Positions 56,536 to 64,000 of a DNA stretch of 64,000 nt are shown one piece after another. The notes beneath the pieces are model-generated. The model searched no databases. It saw nothing but the letters and a program-made list of their open reading frames with translations, and was not told where the DNA came from. The position numbers were made by a program, and so were the translations under genes. How positions within the stretch are numbered: position 1 is the stretch's first letter; each line of letters begins with the position of its first letter. The stretch spans positions 498,658-562,657 of the forward strand of contig CBDDBZ010000038.1 in assembly GCA_965225945.1 (NCBI GenBank), given 5' to 3'. Source of the DNA: Alphaproteobacteria bacterium. GTDB lineage: Bacteria; Pseudomonadota; Alphaproteobacteria; GCA-2731375.

Positions 56536-57270
56536 TCAGGCCGGCGGGCCGCGTCGCTTCAGCCGCTTATAGAGGATCGGCACGCTGGACAGCAGCGCCA
56601 GCGCGACGAGAGGGCCGAAGACTTCCGGATTATAGACGATGCCCCAGTCGGGCTCGCCCCCCTGTTCGAAGATCCGACCGAAGCCGTTGCCGAGGCTGGC
56701 GTAGACGAAGGTTCCGGGGATGATCCCGAAGAAGGTCGCGATCGCGTACGTCGACAGCCTGATGCCCAGCAAGGCGGGCACCAGGTTGACGAGGAAGAAG
56801 GGGAAGAGCGGCACCAGCCGGAGGATCAACAGATAGCTCATGGCGTTCTCCGCGAAGCCGGCCTCCATCCGCTGGAGGGCCGGTCCCGCCCTGCGCCTGA
56901 GCAGGTCGGCGAAGGCGTGGCGCGCCGCCAGGAACAGCAGGCAAGCGCCCAGCGTCGCGGCGAAGACGACGACGCCGCCGCCGAGCCAGGTGCCGAAGAG
57001 AAAGCCGCCAACGGTGGTCAATAGCGAGCCGCCGGGCACCGAACAGGCGATGACGACGACATAAGTCAGGAAGAACAGCGCGACGGCGAGAACGCTCTGC
57101 GCGGCGACCCAGTCCTGCAAGACTTGGCGATGGGCGCGGAGCGTGTCGAAGTTGACGTAGCGGTGTCCACCGGCGGCGAAAAAGACCACGAGGCCCAGGA
57201 CGATCAGCGCGATCGGCAGGTATCGCTTGGCGGCGCCCACGCGGGCATCGCCGGACTCGGGAGTTGCCAT
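56536..57270 (-). CDS. TVP38/TMEM64 (SNARE-associated) membrane protein
   Basis: GGFLFG, LRLVPLFPFFLVN and GIIPGT motifs; likely start MATPES at 57270. Confidence 0.88.
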   Translation of the reverse strand: MATPESGDARVGAAKRYLPIALIVLGLVVFFAAGGHRYVNFDTLRAHRQVLQDWVAAQSVLAVALFFLTYVVVIACSVPGGSLLTTVGGFLFGTWLGGGVVVFAATLGACLLFLAARHAFADLLRRRAGPALQRMEAGFAENAMSYLLILRLVPLFPFFLVNLVPALLGIRLSTYAIATFFGIIPGTFVYASLGNGFGRIFEQGGEPDWGIVYNPEVFGPLVALALLSSVPILYKRLKRRGPPA

Positions 57271-57333
57271 CGTCGCGCCCTGCTCCCCCAATCTCCCCCC
57301 ACTATCGCCATGATGGGACGAGGGGCAAGGAAT

Positions 57334-57485
57334 GTTACGGTAGGAATGCGCATTGCTGCGCACCCCCCGCGGTTACGGTAGGAATGCGCATTGCTGCGCA
57401 CCCCCCGCGGTTACGGTAGGAATGCGCATTGCTGCGCACCCCCCGCGGTTACGGTAGGAATGCGCATTGCTGCGCACCCCCCGCG
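57334..57485 (-). repeat. Four exact 38-bp tandem repeats, each a group II intron domain VI/3' end
   Basis: Minus-strand unit CGCGGGGGGTGCGCAGCAATGCGCATTCCTACCGTAAC forms a hairpin with a GCAA loop, bulged A and terminal AC; units start at 57334, 57372, 57410 and 57448. Confidence 0.93.
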
Positions 57486-59366
57486 CAGATCCGGACGTGG
57501 TCGTTGAACCATCCGGCTCCTACCTCGGGTGCTTGACGGCAAACCGCTGGTCCGGCCATGGGTGGCGGATGGAGGCGCGTGGCCACAGGATTTCGGTCAT
57601 GCGCTCCAGTCGCTTCCAACTAAATCGGGCTCGCTGGGACCGGCGGCGTAGCGCCCGCATCCACCGGCGTTGCAGCCTGCGGAGGAACGCACGGATGAAC
57701 CGGCCTGACCCTGGGACGGCAAAGTAGTTGAGCCAGCCATTGCAGACTCGCCCCAGCCACCTACCAACTTCCCAGATGTCGTGGTGCCAGCGCTTGCGGA
57801 GCACCTCGTCGATGCGCGCCAGGGTCCTGTTGACCCGTTTGGCGACCGGTTTGCGACCAAGCCGAAAGCGTCCTCTCAGGGTCGTCGTGCAATAGTGCGT
57901 GAGGCCCAGAAAGTCGAAAGTCTCCGGCTTGCCCACCCCGCGCTGGCGCCGGTTCAAATCCGCGAACCGGCCAAACTCCACGAGGCGGGTCTTGTCCTGG
58001 TGGAGGCTGAGACCGAACCGGGCCAGCCTCTCCCGAACGTCGCGGAGGTACCGCTCCGCATCCCGCTTGTGTTGGAACCCGACAACGATATCGTCAGCGT
58101 AACGGACGATGATCGCTTCGCCATCCGGGACGTTCGGGCGCCATTTCTTGTGGAACCACAAGTCGAGCACGTAATGCAGGAACACGTTCGCCAAGACGGG
58201 GGAGACTATTGCCCCCTGCGGCGTGCCCATACCCGTATCTGCCCATGACCCACTCTCTATGACGCCGGCGTTCAGCCATTTCCAGATCAGACGGATGACC
58301 CGCCTGTCTCCGATGCGGTGCTCTAGGAACGTGATCAACCAATCCCGCGGGATCGTGTCGAAGTACGCCCGGAGGTCTGCATCGACTATCCAGCTGACCT
58401 TGCGCCGTTTTATCCCGAAGGCCAGGGCATCGAGCGCATCGTGCGCCCCCCGCCCCGGTCGGAACCCGTAGCTGAAGCCAAGAAACACCACCTCGTAGAT
58501 CGGTGTCAGGATCACATCCACAACCGCCTTCTGGACGACCTTGTCCTCCAGCGCCGCGATCCCGAGCGGTCGTGTCCCCCCGTCCGGCTTGGGTATCTCT
58601 ACCCGCCGAACCGGCGGCGCCCGGTACGCTCCCCCTCTGTGCAGGCGCCGGTGCAGGTCGAGCAGGCGCTCATCCAGACCCTCGCCGTACATGTCCCACG
58701 TAACGCCGTCGACACCGGCTGCTGCGTCCTTCTTCAATGCGAAGTAGGCCGCACCGAGCGCGTCCGGCGTAATGTGGTGGAAGAGCGCAGTGAGACGTTC
58801 CTTCGGGTTTCTCTCTGCAGCTTTCCGTATCCGGGCCGCCGCCTGTGGCACGCTTACCCGACACTGTGTTCGGCGCGTGCTTTGGCAATCCGGATTCCCC
58901 TTGGTTGAGGCCCTTTCCTCCGGCGACTCCGCAGAAGCTCGCGCTCCCTTGTTCGCCGCCCTCACAGGTCGTACGGCCTCATCCGACTTCTTCAAACCGT
59001 TCATCATAGGCTTCGGTTTTCTCCATTCCCTACGCGGCCCCTTTACGACAACCGGGGCAGTTTGAAGACCTCCCAGGGTCCCAACAGAAGGCGTGCGAAC
59101 GTGCATGGGTTCTCTGACACCGCGGGGCTCGCCGACATCTCACCAAAACGACGCCTGCGATATTGCCTTCGACCGATCTGAAAGCCTCGGCACCCCGGAC
59201 CATCGCTTTTACGGTGCTCAATAGCCCTGCCCATCCATGCCGCTACCGACGCTTCGCCTGCCCCCTCACGGGAGCCAACGCACGGCTCGCGGAGAAACGT
59301 GGTTCGGTTACTCCTTCGTTCCGGGGGACTTGCACCCCCTACCTTCTGCCAGTTCGCCTGGCGCAC
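57448..59366 (-). mobile_element. Group II intron, innermost intact copy (1919 nt)
   Basis: 5' GTGCG at 59366; D5 GAGCCGGATGGTTCAACGACCACGTCCGGATC at 57519-57488; D6 ending in AC at 57448. Confidence 0.93.
57520..59007 (-). CDS. ltrA: Group II intron reverse transcriptase/maturase, no endonuclease domain (copy 1)
   Basis: AAGVDG, IPKPDG..RPLGI, SYGFRPGR, GTPQG, RYADD and FDFLG motifs; likely start MMNGLKKSD at 59007. Confidence 0.95.
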   Translation of the reverse strand: MMNGLKKSDEAVRPVRAANKGARASAESPEERASTKGNPDCQSTRRTQCRVSVPQAAARIRKAAERNPKERLTALFHHITPDALGAAYFALKKDAAAGVDGVTWDMYGEGLDERLLDLHRRLHRGGAYRAPPVRRVEIPKPDGGTRPLGIAALEDKVVQKAVVDVILTPIYEVVFLGFSYGFRPGRGAHDALDALAFGIKRRKVSWIVDADLRAYFDTIPRDWLITFLEHRIGDRRVIRLIWKWLNAGVIESGSWADTGMGTPQGAIVSPVLANVFLHYVLDLWFHKKWRPNVPDGEAIIVRYADDIVVGFQHKRDAERYLRDVRERLARFGLSLHQDKTRLVEFGRFADLNRRQRGVGKPETFDFLGLTHYCTTTLRGRFRLGRKPVAKRVNRTLARIDEVLRKRWHHDIWEVGRWLGRVCNGWLNYFAVPGSGRFIRAFLRRLQRRWMRALRRRSQRARFSWKRLERMTEILWPRASIRHPWPDQRFAVKHPR

Positions 59367-61247
59367 CAGATCCGGACGTGGTCGTTGAACCATCCGGCTC
59401 CTACCTCGGGTGCTTGACGGCAAACCGCTGGTCCGGCCATGGGTGGCGGATGGAGGCGCGTGGCCACAGGATTTCGGTCATGCGCTCCAGTCGCTTCCAA
59501 CTAAATCGGGCTCGCTGGGACCGGCGGCGTAGCGCCCGCATCCACCGGCGTTGCAGCCTGCGGAGGAACGCACGGATGAACCGGCCTGACCCTGGGACGG
59601 CAAAGTAGTTGAGCCAGCCATTGCAGACTCGCCCCAGCCACCTACCAACTTCCCAGATGTCGTGGTGCCAGCGCTTGCGGAGCACCTCGTCGATGCGCGC
59701 CAGGGTCCTGTTGACCCGTTTGGCGACCGGTTTGCGACCAAGCCGAAAGCGTCCTCTCAGGGTCGTCGTGCAATAGTGCGTGAGGCCCAGAAAGTCGAAA
59801 GTCTCCGGCTTGCCCACCCCGCGCTGGCGCCGGTTCAAATCCGCGAACCGGCCAAACTCCACGAGGCGGGTCTTGTCCTGGTGGAGGCTGAGACCGAACC
59901 GGGCCAGCCTCTCCCGAACGTCGCGGAGGTACCGCTCCGCATCCCGCTTGTGTTGGAACCCGACAACGATATCGTCAGCGTAACGGACGATGATCGCTTC
60001 GCCATCCGGGACGTTCGGGCGCCATTTCTTGTGGAACCACAAGTCGAGCACGTAATGCAGGAACACGTTCGCCAAGACGGGGGAGACTATTGCCCCCTGC
60101 GGCGTGCCCATACCCGTATCTGCCCATGACCCACTCTCTATGACGCCGGCGTTCAGCCATTTCCAGATCAGACGGATGACCCGCCTGTCTCCGATGCGGT
60201 GCTCTAGGAACGTGATCAACCAATCCCGCGGGATCGTGTCGAAGTACGCCCGGAGGTCTGCATCGACTATCCAGCTGACCTTGCGCCGTTTTATCCCGAA
60301 GGCCAGGGCATCGAGCGCATCGTGCGCCCCCCGCCCCGGTCGGAACCCGTAGCTGAAGCCAAGAAACACCACCTCGTAGATCGGTGTCAGGATCACATCC
60401 ACAACCGCCTTCTGGACGACCTTGTCCTCCAGCGCCGCGATCCCGAGCGGTCGTGTCCCCCCGTCCGGCTTGGGTATCTCTACCCGCCGAACCGGCGGCG
60501 CCCGGTACGCTCCCCCTCTGTGCAGGCGCCGGTGCAGGTCGAGCAGGCGCTCATCCAGACCCTCGCCGTACATGTCCCACGTAACGCCGTCGACACCGGC
60601 TGCTGCGTCCTTCTTCAATGCGAAGTAGGCCGCACCGAGCGCGTCCGGCGTAATGTGGTGGAAGAGCGCAGTGAGACGTTCCTTCGGGTTTCTCTCTGCA
60701 GCTTTCCGTATCCGGGCCGCCGCCTGTGGCACGCTTACCCGACACTGTGTTCGGCGCGTGCTTTGGCAATCCGGATTCCCCTTGGTTGAGGCCCTTTCCT
60801 CCGGCGACTCCGCAGAAGCTCGCGCTCCCTTGTTCGCCGCCCTCACAGGTCGTACGGCCTCATCCGACTTCTTCAAACCGTTCATCATAGGCTTCGGTTT
60901 TCTCCATTCCCTACGCGGCCCCTTTACGACAACCGGGGCAGTTTGAAGACCTCCCAGGGTCCCAACAGAAGGCGTGCGAACGTGCATGGGTTCTCTGACA
61001 CCGCGGGGCTCGCCGACATCTCACCAAAACGACGCCTGCGATATTGCCTTCGACCGATCTGAAAGCCTCGGCACCCCGGACCATCGCTTTTACGGTGCTC
61101 AATAGCCCTGCCCATCCATGCCGCTACCGACGCTTCGCCTGCCCCCTCACGGGAGCCAACGCACGGCTCGCGGAGAAACGTGGTTCGGTTACTCCTTCGT
61201 TCCGGGGGACTTGCACCCCCTACCTTCTGCCAGTTCGCCTGGCGCAC
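59367..61247 (-). mobile_element. Group II intron, 5' end to D5 (copy 2, interrupted by copy 1)
   Basis: 1881-bp repeat; D5 end GGATCTG joined directly to GTGCG of the next copy. Confidence 0.92.
59401..60888 (-). CDS. ltrA: Group II intron RT/maturase (copy 2)
   Basis: Translation identical to copy 1. Confidence 0.95.
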   Translation of the reverse strand: MMNGLKKSDEAVRPVRAANKGARASAESPEERASTKGNPDCQSTRRTQCRVSVPQAAARIRKAAERNPKERLTALFHHITPDALGAAYFALKKDAAAGVDGVTWDMYGEGLDERLLDLHRRLHRGGAYRAPPVRRVEIPKPDGGTRPLGIAALEDKVVQKAVVDVILTPIYEVVFLGFSYGFRPGRGAHDALDALAFGIKRRKVSWIVDADLRAYFDTIPRDWLITFLEHRIGDRRVIRLIWKWLNAGVIESGSWADTGMGTPQGAIVSPVLANVFLHYVLDLWFHKKWRPNVPDGEAIIVRYADDIVVGFQHKRDAERYLRDVRERLARFGLSLHQDKTRLVEFGRFADLNRRQRGVGKPETFDFLGLTHYCTTTLRGRFRLGRKPVAKRVNRTLARIDEVLRKRWHHDIWEVGRWLGRVCNGWLNYFAVPGSGRFIRAFLRRLQRRWMRALRRRSQRARFSWKRLERMTEILWPRASIRHPWPDQRFAVKHPR

Positions 61248-63128
61248 CAGATCCGGACGTGGTCGTTGAACCATCCGGCTCCTACCTCGGGTGCTTGACG
61301 GCAAACCGCTGGTCCGGCCATGGGTGGCGGATGGAGGCGCGTGGCCACAGGATTTCGGTCATGCGCTCCAGTCGCTTCCAACTAAATCGGGCTCGCTGGG
61401 ACCGGCGGCGTAGCGCCCGCATCCACCGGCGTTGCAGCCTGCGGAGGAACGCACGGATGAACCGGCCTGACCCTGGGACGGCAAAGTAGTTGAGCCAGCC
61501 ATTGCAGACTCGCCCCAGCCACCTACCAACTTCCCAGATGTCGTGGTGCCAGCGCTTGCGGAGCACCTCGTCGATGCGCGCCAGGGTCCTGTTGACCCGT
61601 TTGGCGACCGGTTTGCGACCAAGCCGAAAGCGTCCTCTCAGGGTCGTCGTGCAATAGTGCGTGAGGCCCAGAAAGTCGAAAGTCTCCGGCTTGCCCACCC
61701 CGCGCTGGCGCCGGTTCAAATCCGCGAACCGGCCAAACTCCACGAGGCGGGTCTTGTCCTGGTGGAGGCTGAGACCGAACCGGGCCAGCCTCTCCCGAAC
61801 GTCGCGGAGGTACCGCTCCGCATCCCGCTTGTGTTGGAACCCGACAACGATATCGTCAGCGTAACGGACGATGATCGCTTCGCCATCCGGGACGTTCGGG
61901 CGCCATTTCTTGTGGAACCACAAGTCGAGCACGTAATGCAGGAACACGTTCGCCAAGACGGGGGAGACTATTGCCCCCTGCGGCGTGCCCATACCCGTAT
62001 CTGCCCATGACCCACTCTCTATGACGCCGGCGTTCAGCCATTTCCAGATCAGACGGATGACCCGCCTGTCTCCGATGCGGTGCTCTAGGAACGTGATCAA
62101 CCAATCCCGCGGGATCGTGTCGAAGTACGCCCGGAGGTCTGCATCGACTATCCAGCTGACCTTGCGCCGTTTTATCCCGAAGGCCAGGGCATCGAGCGCA
62201 TCGTGCGCCCCCCGCCCCGGTCGGAACCCGTAGCTGAAGCCAAGAAACACCACCTCGTAGATCGGTGTCAGGATCACATCCACAACCGCCTTCTGGACGA
62301 CCTTGTCCTCCAGCGCCGCGATCCCGAGCGGTCGTGTCCCCCCGTCCGGCTTGGGTATCTCTACCCGCCGAACCGGCGGCGCCCGGTACGCTCCCCCTCT
62401 GTGCAGGCGCCGGTGCAGGTCGAGCAGGCGCTCATCCAGACCCTCGCCGTACATGTCCCACGTAACGCCGTCGACACCGGCTGCTGCGTCCTTCTTCAAT
62501 GCGAAGTAGGCCGCACCGAGCGCGTCCGGCGTAATGTGGTGGAAGAGCGCAGTGAGACGTTCCTTCGGGTTTCTCTCTGCAGCTTTCCGTATCCGGGCCG
62601 CCGCCTGTGGCACGCTTACCCGACACTGTGTTCGGCGCGTGCTTTGGCAATCCGGATTCCCCTTGGTTGAGGCCCTTTCCTCCGGCGACTCCGCAGAAGC
62701 TCGCGCTCCCTTGTTCGCCGCCCTCACAGGTCGTACGGCCTCATCCGACTTCTTCAAACCGTTCATCATAGGCTTCGGTTTTCTCCATTCCCTACGCGGC
62801 CCCTTTACGACAACCGGGGCAGTTTGAAGACCTCCCAGGGTCCCAACAGAAGGCGTGCGAACGTGCATGGGTTCTCTGACACCGCGGGGCTCGCCGACAT
62901 CTCACCAAAACGACGCCTGCGATATTGCCTTCGACCGATCTGAAAGCCTCGGCACCCCGGACCATCGCTTTTACGGTGCTCAATAGCCCTGCCCATCCAT
63001 GCCGCTACCGACGCTTCGCCTGCCCCCTCACGGGAGCCAACGCACGGCTCGCGGAGAAACGTGGTTCGGTTACTCCTTCGTTCCGGGGGACTTGCACCCC
63101 CTACCTTCTGCCAGTTCGCCTGGCGCAC
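61248..63128 (-). mobile_element. Group II intron, 5' end to D5 (copy 3)
   Basis: 1881-bp repeat with the same junctions. Confidence 0.92.
61282..62769 (-). CDS. ltrA: Group II intron RT/maturase (copy 3)
   Basis: Translation identical to copy 1. Confidence 0.95.
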   Translation of the reverse strand: MMNGLKKSDEAVRPVRAANKGARASAESPEERASTKGNPDCQSTRRTQCRVSVPQAAARIRKAAERNPKERLTALFHHITPDALGAAYFALKKDAAAGVDGVTWDMYGEGLDERLLDLHRRLHRGGAYRAPPVRRVEIPKPDGGTRPLGIAALEDKVVQKAVVDVILTPIYEVVFLGFSYGFRPGRGAHDALDALAFGIKRRKVSWIVDADLRAYFDTIPRDWLITFLEHRIGDRRVIRLIWKWLNAGVIESGSWADTGMGTPQGAIVSPVLANVFLHYVLDLWFHKKWRPNVPDGEAIIVRYADDIVVGFQHKRDAERYLRDVRERLARFGLSLHQDKTRLVEFGRFADLNRRQRGVGKPETFDFLGLTHYCTTTLRGRFRLGRKPVAKRVNRTLARIDEVLRKRWHHDIWEVGRWLGRVCNGWLNYFAVPGSGRFIRAFLRRLQRRWMRALRRRSQRARFSWKRLERMTEILWPRASIRHPWPDQRFAVKHPR

Positions 63129-64000
63129 CAGATCCGGACGTGGTCGTTGAACCATCCGGCTCCTACCTCGGGTGCTTGACGGCAAACCGCTGGTCCGGCC
63201 ATGGGTGGCGGATGGAGGCGCGTGGCCACAGGATTTCGGTCATGCGCTCCAGTCGCTTCCAACTAAATCGGGCTCGCTGGGACCGGCGGCGTAGCGCCCG
63301 CATCCACCGGCGTTGCAGCCTGCGGAGGAACGCACGGATGAACCGGCCTGACCCTGGGACGGCAAAGTAGTTGAGCCAGCCATTGCAGACTCGCCCCAGC
63401 CACCTACCAACTTCCCAGATGTCGTGGTGCCAGCGCTTGCGGAGCACCTCGTCGATGCGCGCCAGGGTCCTGTTGACCCGTTTGGCGACCGGTTTGCGAC
63501 CAAGCCGAAAGCGTCCTCTCAGGGTCGTCGTGCAATAGTGCGTGAGGCCCAGAAAGTCGAAAGTCTCCGGCTTGCCCACCCCGCGCTGGCGCCGGTTCAA
63601 ATCCGCGAACCGGCCAAACTCCACGAGGCGGGTCTTGTCCTGGTGGAGGCTGAGACCGAACCGGGCCAGCCTCTCCCGAACGTCGCGGAGGTACCGCTCC
63701 GCATCCCGCTTGTGTTGGAACCCGACAACGATATCGTCAGCGTAACGGACGATGATCGCTTCGCCATCCGGGACGTTCGGGCGCCATTTCTTGTGGAACC
63801 ACAAGTCGAGCACGTAATGCAGGAACACGTTCGCCAAGACGGGGGAGACTATTGCCCCCTGCGGCGTGCCCATACCCGTATCTGCCCATGACCCACTCTC
63901 TATGACGCCGGCGTTCAGCCATTTCCAGATCAGACGGATGACCCGCCTGTCTCCGATGCGGTGCTCTAGGAACGTGATCAACCAATCCCGCGGGATCGTG
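63129..64000 (-). mobile_element. Group II intron copy 4 (partial; RT ORF 3' half from 63163 to the window edge)
   Basis: Same sequence continues to the window edge. Confidence 0.9.

Follow-up and report, generated by a model that had tools for sequence, protein, structure and literature searches.

Organization of the Array in the Window

The stretch analyzed here (the window) comprises 64,000 nucleotides (nt) from the 39-contig genome of a sponge-associated alphaproteobacterium (G000) and corresponds to contig C38:498658-562657. Its distal part carries, on the minus strand, a nested array of a group II intron, in which intron bodies follow one another directly and the terminal domains are collected behind the last body. 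Two units are distinguished: A is the 1881-nt intron body, from GTGCG to domain 5 (D5) plus TG, and B is the 38-nt domain 6 (D6) unit; a slash denotes a junction or an insertion point. Read along the minus strand, the units are arranged A' A A A B B B B, and unique DNA follows. The features of the array, including the open reading frames (ORFs), the exon-binding sites (EBS) and the linker J5/6 between D5 and D6, are as follows.

57334-57485, minus strand: four tandem 38-nt D6 units (B), with 38-nt spacing and 100% identity
57448-57485, minus strand: D6 of the innermost intron
57410-57447, 57372-57409 and 57334-57371, minus strand: displaced D6 units of the outer copies
57486-59366, minus strand: body A copy 1 (innermost), with the 5' GTGCG, domains D1-D4 and the protein ORF, D5 and the TG of J5/6; RF02005 match at 59108-59332
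59367-61247, minus strand: body A copy 2, 100% identical to copy 1; RF02005 match at 60989-61213
61248-63128, minus strand: body A copy 3, 100% identical; RF02005 match at 62870-63094
63129-64000, minus strand: partial body A copy 4 (intron nt 1010-1881), where contig C38 ends
57520-59106, minus strand: intron-encoded protein ORF, 528 amino acids (aa) as the longest ORF, reverse transcriptase (RT) plus maturase
59401-60987 and 61282-62868, minus strand: further identical 528-aa ORFs
57488-57519, minus strand: D5 (GAGCCGGAUGGUUCAACGACCACGUCCGGAUC), from structure alignment and fold, with the linker UG at 57486-57487
59175-59180, minus strand: EBS1 CAGAUC (intron nt 187-192), in the loop UUCAGAUC of a D1 hairpin, from the RF02005 alignment
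59201-59206, minus strand: candidate EBS2 GCG(AUG), nt 161-166, a single-stranded stretch proposed from the flanks of the insertion sites

The 1881-nt period is found four times at 100% identity, with starts at 57486, 59367, 61248 and 63129. The fourth body is limited to 872 nt by the end of contig C38 itself at 562657, giving a body count of at least 3.46 and a D6 count of four. The sequence-only reading, an earlier reading of this DNA made by a model, had described four identical copies; three complete identical bodies, 872 nt of a further one and four D6 units are present, and a full fourth body is unconfirmed, as the contig ends there. The GTGCG that this reading had predicted at 65009 would lie beyond the contig.

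The order of the units is readily apparent from the junctions. All A/A junctions of the window read ...CCGGATCTG/GTGCGCC, so that D5 and TG of copy 2, for example, run straight into the GTGCG of copy 1. The sole A/B junction reads ...CCGGATCTG/CGCGGGG, and the D6 sequence CGCGGGGGG... follows only the body that adjoins the D6 units. Unit B (CGCGGGGGGTGCGCAGCAATGCGCATTCCTACCGTAAC) is present in four identical, directly abutting units with no ORFs between them, and the body of copy 1 together with B at 57448-57485 constitutes one intact 1919-nt intron. The A..A B..B order recognized in the sequence-only reading, with GTGCG after every D5 and D6 after the last body only, is thus seen at exact junctions. 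Simple tandem duplication, which gives (AB)n and had been set aside in that reading, does not describe the array, since D6 does not follow every body. In a fold of the minus strand of 57372-57519, neighboring tandem D6 units are predicted to pair mutually and not as separate hairpins; such pairing could hinder the use of the outer D6 units in splicing.

Identification of the Repeated Unit

Judged by its ribozyme and protein signatures, A plus B is a mobile bacterial group II intron of 1919 nt, with a D1D4-6-type ribozyme and an RT/maturase without an endonuclease domain. Every complete body opens with GTGCGCC, in agreement with the GUGYG consensus for the 5' end. The Rfam model RF02005 (group-II-D1D4-6) gives three full D1-D4 matches in the window at 163.7 bits each (gathering score 49), while RF00029 aligns D5-UG(C)-D6 at 57448-57521 with 35.4 bits, below its gathering score of 40. 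Across the genome, RF00029 returns two weak, unrelated matches only, and is of no use for counting D5/D6. D5 forms a hairpin with the AGC triad and a 2-nt bulge (GAGCCGGAU..AC..GUCCGGAUC), and the bulged hairpin is also returned by folding. D6 ends in ..CCUACCGUAAC/, with AAC at the 3' end; RF00029 leaves UA unpaired in CCUACC, and the fold shows a bulge at the same place, as befits a bulged branch-point A a short way from a 3' AY end.

The intron-encoded protein, whose ORF lies in D4, matches RVT_1 over residues 171-403 (E=1.1e-36). The GIIM (maturase) match reaches 21.6 bits, under the cut-off of 23, and nothing is matched beyond residue 498. The protein ends 30 aa past GIIM and its TAG stop abuts D5; it therefore has no endonuclease domain. 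The true start of the 528-aa ORF probably lies later than that of the longest ORF. The classification reached is the Rfam subfamily D1D4-6 with an endonuclease-less protein.

The assembled unit is identical in make-up to the solitary 1919-nt introns found at three other loci of G000 (C24, C34b and C20) and in the genomes G002 and G037. Excision of the inner A plus B (1919 nt) from A A B B leaves A B, which is the solitary intron; the same operation restores the host introns Y and Z, described below. That the intron is mobile is indicated indirectly, by near-identical copies at different sites and by one site that is empty in relatives.

Match between the Intron and Its Own D5/D6 Linker

The EBS1 loop CAGAUC is complementary to GAUCUG, which consists of the last four bases of D5 and the linker UG (the corresponding intron-binding site, IBS1). 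EBS1 thus pairs with the 3' strand of the intron's own D5 plus linker, which accounts for the self-targeting. A candidate EBS2 is GCG (nt 161-163), in a single-stranded part of D1, which would pair with CGY; the assignment comes from the flanks of the insertion sites. The candidate IBS2 in the intron's own D5 is CGU at positions -12 to -10, within the conserved bulge region (..CACGU..). D5 is the most conserved element of group II introns. If the proposed EBS2 pairing is correct, this most conserved element supplies both intron-binding sites.

The insertion sites were compared over 18 site-occurrences of copies 94-100% identical. G000 contributed six of these, the congeneric genome G002 nine, G037, which belongs to another family of the class, two, and L020, an alphaproteobacterial chromosome assembled from a metagenome, one. 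Two places were left out of this count, namely L014, which is an 86-nt 5' fragment only, and the G002 place L031, where the motif was not seen in the 161 nt read. The 5' flank ends in GRTYTG at all 18 site-occurrences in the four genomes, as counted by eye, and CGY stands at -12 to -10 in 12 of them. The D5/D6 linker of a group II intron is the insertion site in seven of the 18. The hosts are the intron itself, X and Y in G000, U and Y in G002, a Y-like intron in G037, and Z in L020. The host D5-TG lies immediately 5' in all seven cases, and the host D6 immediately 3' wherever this can be read (Y in G000, the Y-like intron in G037, and Z). A 20-nt scan for the A/A junction over the genome contigs gave eight matches, of which five were chance matches within unrelated sequence and one was the L014 fragment.

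The complete genome of Sorangium sp. So ce1014 (L016) has another D1D4-6 intron at this very point of the linker. Insertion into the linker of other introns is seen in four further genomes besides G000. On these recurrences, the linker is a genuine homing site and not a quirk of one locus. The earlier proposal of homing into the intron's own linker, 2 nt after D5, is borne out by the EBS1 match and by the use of the same site in hosts X, Y, U and Z, as well as by the single-nucleotide polymorphism (SNP) haplotypes and the empty site presented in the following sections.

The near-identical intron is present in G002 (98% identity), G037 and L020 (94% identity). This suggests that it has spread horizontally and recently, perhaps between organisms living in a common habitat. 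Where the intron lies in host X at C24:80986-82946, six bases of the X D6 (tgcggg) come after it, and a further X copy then begins with its 5' end; this second intron family seems to use a homing point that lies 6 nt deeper in the D5/D6 region. The X ORF is itself interrupted near residue 280 by a 1472-nt repeat at C24, C29 and C37.

Arrays Elsewhere in the Genome

A BLAST search with A plus B against the 39 contigs of G000 returned 11 loci, named here after their contigs.

Window locus: at least 3.46 A, then four B
C38a: body cut by insertion sequence (IS) elements, then A, then six B
C33: body cut by the same IS-like repeat as at C38a, then A, then five B
C34a: one A and three B, between D5 and D6 of intron Y
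C39: A without its first 30 nt, then three B
C35: contig end, part of a body, then two B
C31: A A A, then contig end
C37: two A and one B, behind D5 of intron X
C24, C34b and C20: solitary copies

The genome contains eight A/A junctions and 17 exact matches to the B/B pattern, one of the latter within an odd C33 fragment; the two kinds of junction are spread over about eight of the 11 loci. In the arrays at C31, C37, C38a and C33, neighboring bodies differ at several SNPs or indels. At C31, for instance, the outer copy carries 1T, 500C, 570G, 1083C and 1429A, and the next copy 219G, 611T and 1111C. Neighbors with different haplotypes are therefore separate insertions from different donors, and not assembler loops or fresh duplications. 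Variants are also found in the D6 arrays, with a unit starting with T at C38a and a unit with a 2-nt deletion at C33. Collectively, these junctions and haplotypes indicate that the arrays are a real, multi-locus phenomenon.

The odd C33 fragment lies at C33:304600-304670, just 3' of the five D6 units, where a 32-nt piece spanning a B/B junction replaces 10 nt in the 5' region of an intron X; it could reflect gene conversion, rearrangement or local misassembly. The truncated outer bodies at C38a and C33, which end at intron nt 821 and 845, respectively, abut a high-copy repeat of about 1048 nt (C38:146453-147500 and C33:307776-308820), and their 5' parts are absent from the assembly. Other high-copy repeats measure about 1472 nt and at least 2.3 kb, and G000 is unusually rich in mobile elements.

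Insertion Sites with Intron-Free Counterparts

The 5' flank at the C31 end encodes a bacterial alpha-2-macroglobulin (domains bMG5, bMG6, A2M_BRD and A2M). In G002 and in a further genome, G001, this flank is contiguous with the sequence that forms the C38a 3' flank in G000 and whose start lies immediately ahead of the CTEQ thioester motif. The C31 end and C38a thus represent the two sides of one insertion site, ..CCGGGTCTG/, which is intact and intron-free in both G002 and G001. In G000 the locus holds at least five distinct bodies, three at C31 and two at C38a, with differing SNPs, and six D6 units. These numbers come close to the equal counts of bodies and D6 units expected of A(n)B(n). IS elements have struck the array, which the assembly shows in two separate parts. 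At the 5' splice site of the outermost copy, G1 is replaced by T; the split gene (C31:258400-260174, L038, and C38:140483-141848) is therefore probably dead in G000.

The window array has a different setting. Downstream of it lies a gene for a VTT/DedA-family membrane protein (56536-57311, minus strand; VTT_dom, E=1.1e-20), and no more than about 65 nt separate its likely ATG from the array, which is therefore intergenic. In G002 and G001 no intron precedes the homologous gene, and the window 3' flank is intron-free there. The 5' exon of the window array was not found by synteny with G002 and G001. The sequence upstream of the 3' flank by synteny is located at C31:185562-194235, internally in that contig and beside other repeats. 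Joining the C31 end (body to nt 1623) to the fourth window body (from nt 1010) was also considered. The two overlap without mismatch, but the join is not supported by synteny, which in G002 and G001 pairs the C31 5' flank with the C38a 3' flank.

Proposed Mechanism

The arrays are probably the product of serial retrohoming of the intron into its own D5/D6 linker, yielding A(n)B(n), with later decay of the arrays. This reading draws on the anatomy, the exact junctions, the EBS1/IBS1 match, the recurrence of the site in other host introns and the haplotype differences between neighbors, all of them taken from sequence; from these we infer the RNA-mediated mechanism, the order of splicing and the routes of decay. 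EBS1, and probably EBS2, would recognize the conserved 3' strand of D5 together with the two linker bases next to it (..CGY..GRUCUG/). Every related intron, and the intron itself, would therefore present a place for homing between D5 and D6. The excised intron, as a ribonucleoprotein, would reverse-splice into the linker DNA and then be copied into cDNA. The host copy would thereby be split into its body (A, up to D5 plus UG) and a displaced D6 (B), and the only intact A/B junction would be that of the new inner copy. The next insertion would take place there, and repetition would generate A(n)B(n), the window corresponding to at least three rounds of insertion. Splicing would proceed from the inside out, each inner splicing event restoring the next intron.

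Decay could follow several courses. Homologous recombination between the 1.9-kb bodies would remove bodies faster than the 38-nt D6 units. As an alternative shortcut, the nascent cDNA, after copying D6, might be resolved against the identical upstream body, and D6 alone would be added. IS insertions and recombination between arrays may also break arrays. A bolder extension of serial retrohoming, possible though on balance doubtful, would make this intron lineage a specialized parasite of group II introns. Its exon-binding sites would be tuned to the piece most conserved among all such introns, the 3' strand of D5 with J5/6, and related introns, its own copies above all, would be the preferred harmless home. 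The D6 array would then be a tally of invasions, including D6-only steps by shortcut retrohoming that add 38 nt and not 1919 nt.

Opposing Observations and Alternative Explanations

The observations that weigh against serial self-homing concern its distribution, the identity and numbers of the copies, and the assembly. With regard to distribution, G002 and G037 share EBS1, the candidate EBS2, D5 and the linker identically, yet show no A/A and no B/B junction. Self-homing is therefore not an automatic consequence of the EBS1 match. No cause for the lack of nesting in these two genomes was found in the sequence comparison: G002 differs once in the region matched by RF02005 (nt 35-259), at nt 241, where a stem G-C becomes G-U, and its remaining differences are at nt 511 and in the ORF. 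The strict D5/GTGCG pattern occurs in one of 401 sampled genomes of the class, G000 itself, and two scans of JGI metagenome contigs gave no A/A or B/B junction. In the material surveyed, self-nesting appears confined to the G000 organism and to one contig of a public run, X13.

As to the copies, the three complete bodies of the window are 100% identical, and serial homing at this locus is therefore indistinguishable from amplification by unequal recombination. Moreover, the numbers of bodies and D6 units differ at C34a (one and three, clean on both sides) and at C37 (two and one). The sequence-only reading held that the two counts must match, on pain of refutation, which is not what these two loci display; the unequal counts are better read as later loss or shortcut integration. 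The 3' flank at C37 is not the host D6, which suggests a deletion. Three non-exclusive routes could lead to unequal counts: RecA-type deletion of bodies, for which 1.9-kb repeats are far better suited than 38-nt units and which is the route reported for Methanosarcina (PMC4424553); slippage of D6 units; and shortcut resolution of the cDNA.

The same observations would be accommodated if a few self-insertions had made A A B B and the copy numbers had then changed by unequal crossing-over or slippage, acting on bodies and D6 units independently. The complete identity of the window bodies and of the D6 units agrees with such a history, as do the uncoupled counts at C34a and C37, and copies are deleted by recombination in the arrays of Methanosarcina, according to PMC4424553. 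We nevertheless consider it unlikely. The differing haplotypes of neighbors in four other arrays indicate that repeated independent insertions do occur, the D6 counts of three to six at five loci fit a one-way tally better than symmetric slippage, and at least one self-insertion at each of about eight loci points to a frequent event.

As to the assembly, the window array reaches the end of its contig, and the number of its identical bodies rests on the assembly alone. Support from public runs was sought in their assembled Logan contigs. The window stretch is present in 20 public runs from eight studies, labeled as sponge or sponge-metagenome material. The RNA library X13, which comes from another study, includes an 864-nt contig that runs precisely across the unspliced A/A junction (59366 to 57486), covering 212 nt on one side and 652 nt on the other; it could stem from DNA carry-over. 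The contigs of the DNA runs X1 and X8 stop at the junction, as is expected for k=31 graphs, and lend no positive support.

It might thus be supposed that the tandem bodies, or their number, are an assembly artefact at a contig-end repeat and that the real locus contains one intron. Besides the window array, C31 and C35 also end inside the intron, G000 is a 39-contig bin with an estimated contamination of 5.58%, and the public runs contribute assembled contigs only. This is, in our view, very improbable. The contig-internal arrays at C37, C38a and C33 have neighbors with distinct SNPs, variant D6 units are present at C38a and C33, and a contig from an independent run spans A/A. A 1418-nt IS3-like element, with two overlapping ORFs, an rve-type DDE motif recognized by eye and terminal inverted repeats (e.g., C38:144739-146156), occurs inside the G000 contigs in about 40 near-identical full-length copies (≥99.5% identity), one of them within an outer intron body. 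With about 40 copies of this 1.4-kb element resolved within contigs, the assembly evidently resolves repeats of such size, and it was presumably built from long reads. Furthermore, loop artefacts do not give A..A B..B with exact intron ends. Template switching or lariat read-through was also considered as a source of A/A and was set aside by reasoning alone, as it would join at the intron 3' end or the branch point and not in J5/6.

Finally, it is hardly credible that composites (unspliced A A B B, or A B B B formed with a distal D6 as the 3' end) retrohome whole, so that arrays are inherited and not built in place: exactly A B B B is found at both C34a and C39, and the recurrence of the intron in Y in G000, G002 and G037 could reflect composite movement or transfer, but an outer intron with D5 and D6 1.9 kb apart would be unlikely to fold, in view of the established part played by a short J5/6 linker, pairing among the tandem D6 units is predicted, and the haplotypes of outer and inner copies differ. 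Serial self-homing with later decay is retained as the preferred reading, in which recombination would share in shaping the copy numbers.

Significance and Comparison with Known Systems

Spliceosomal introns and non-LTR (long terminal repeat) retroelements are presumed to descend from group II introns, and a central question about the latter is how they multiply without killing their host. The arrays described here would represent a self-contained "safe harbour", in which each insertion spares host genes, keeps the outer copy silent for as long as the inner one is unspliced, and provides the target anew. Arrays of the type A(n)B(m) may be regarded as a readable record of insertion versus recombinational loss, and would provide a natural substrate for studies of ordered multi-step splicing. 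They further suggest that D5 itself can serve as a homing site shared across intron families. In annotation, such arrays break assemblies and intron-finding pipelines.

Searches of the openly available literature, supplements excepted, gave no report of an intron inserting between D5 and D6, nor of serial self-homing with a D6 array as its product. The sequence-only reading, which knew of no described intron with this behavior, is upheld to this extent and needs qualification in another respect, since nested arrays (PMC4424553) and a single self-invasion (PMC7049729) have been published. What appears to be new is serial self-homing into the D5/D6 linker.

The single self-invasion concerns the lycopod mitochondrial intron cox1i1149g2, which "jumped into itself" (Zumkeller, Gerke & Knoop 2020, PMC7049729). 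As in the present case, a group II intron holds its own copy. That case, however, is a single event at internal position 652 of an organellar intron, with a degenerate inner copy not seen splicing and without an array, whereas several rounds, the D5/D6 linker, many loci and intact copies are involved here. Nesting in bacteria is likewise documented. The twintrons of Thermosynechococcus elongatus (Mohr, Ghanem & Lambowitz 2010, PMC2882425) resemble the present system in their spread into related introns, with identical inner copies in diverged outer ones; there, the insertion lies between the first two ATGs of the D4 protein ORF, the inner intron is ORF-less and of another family, and there is one level of nesting. 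The bacterial twintron of Trichodesmium erythraeum (Pfreundt & Hess 2015, PMC4649490) is similar in kind, and its sequential splicing was demonstrated experimentally. Its inner intron occupies domain 1 of a different host intron, and the gene in which both lie regains its reading frame.

Clostridium tetani C.te.I1 likewise has several 3' domains in tandem after a single intron body (PMC4424553). The repeats there are four DV/DVI (D5 plus D6) units, each of which specifies its own alternative 3' splice site and is joined to a separate downstream ORF, while in G000 D6 alone is repeated, and the units are identical and abutting, with no ORFs after each.

Nested arrays of up to five introns, formed by repeated homing into other introns, are reported for Methanosarcina acetivorans in the same source, where they are balanced by recombinational loss and act as a "perpetual homing site" (PMC4424553). 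The arrays of G000 are similar in that no host gene is at stake, copies appear to be lost by homologous recombination, and the homing site is perpetual (PMC4424553, PMC2882425). They differ in the target, which in Methanosarcina consists of the ORFs of related introns (by the title of Dai & Zimmerly 2003) and here of the 3-nt D5/D6 linker. They also differ in that the invader here is the same intron as its host, and in the product, which is an array of bodies with a separate tandem array of 38-nt D6 units.

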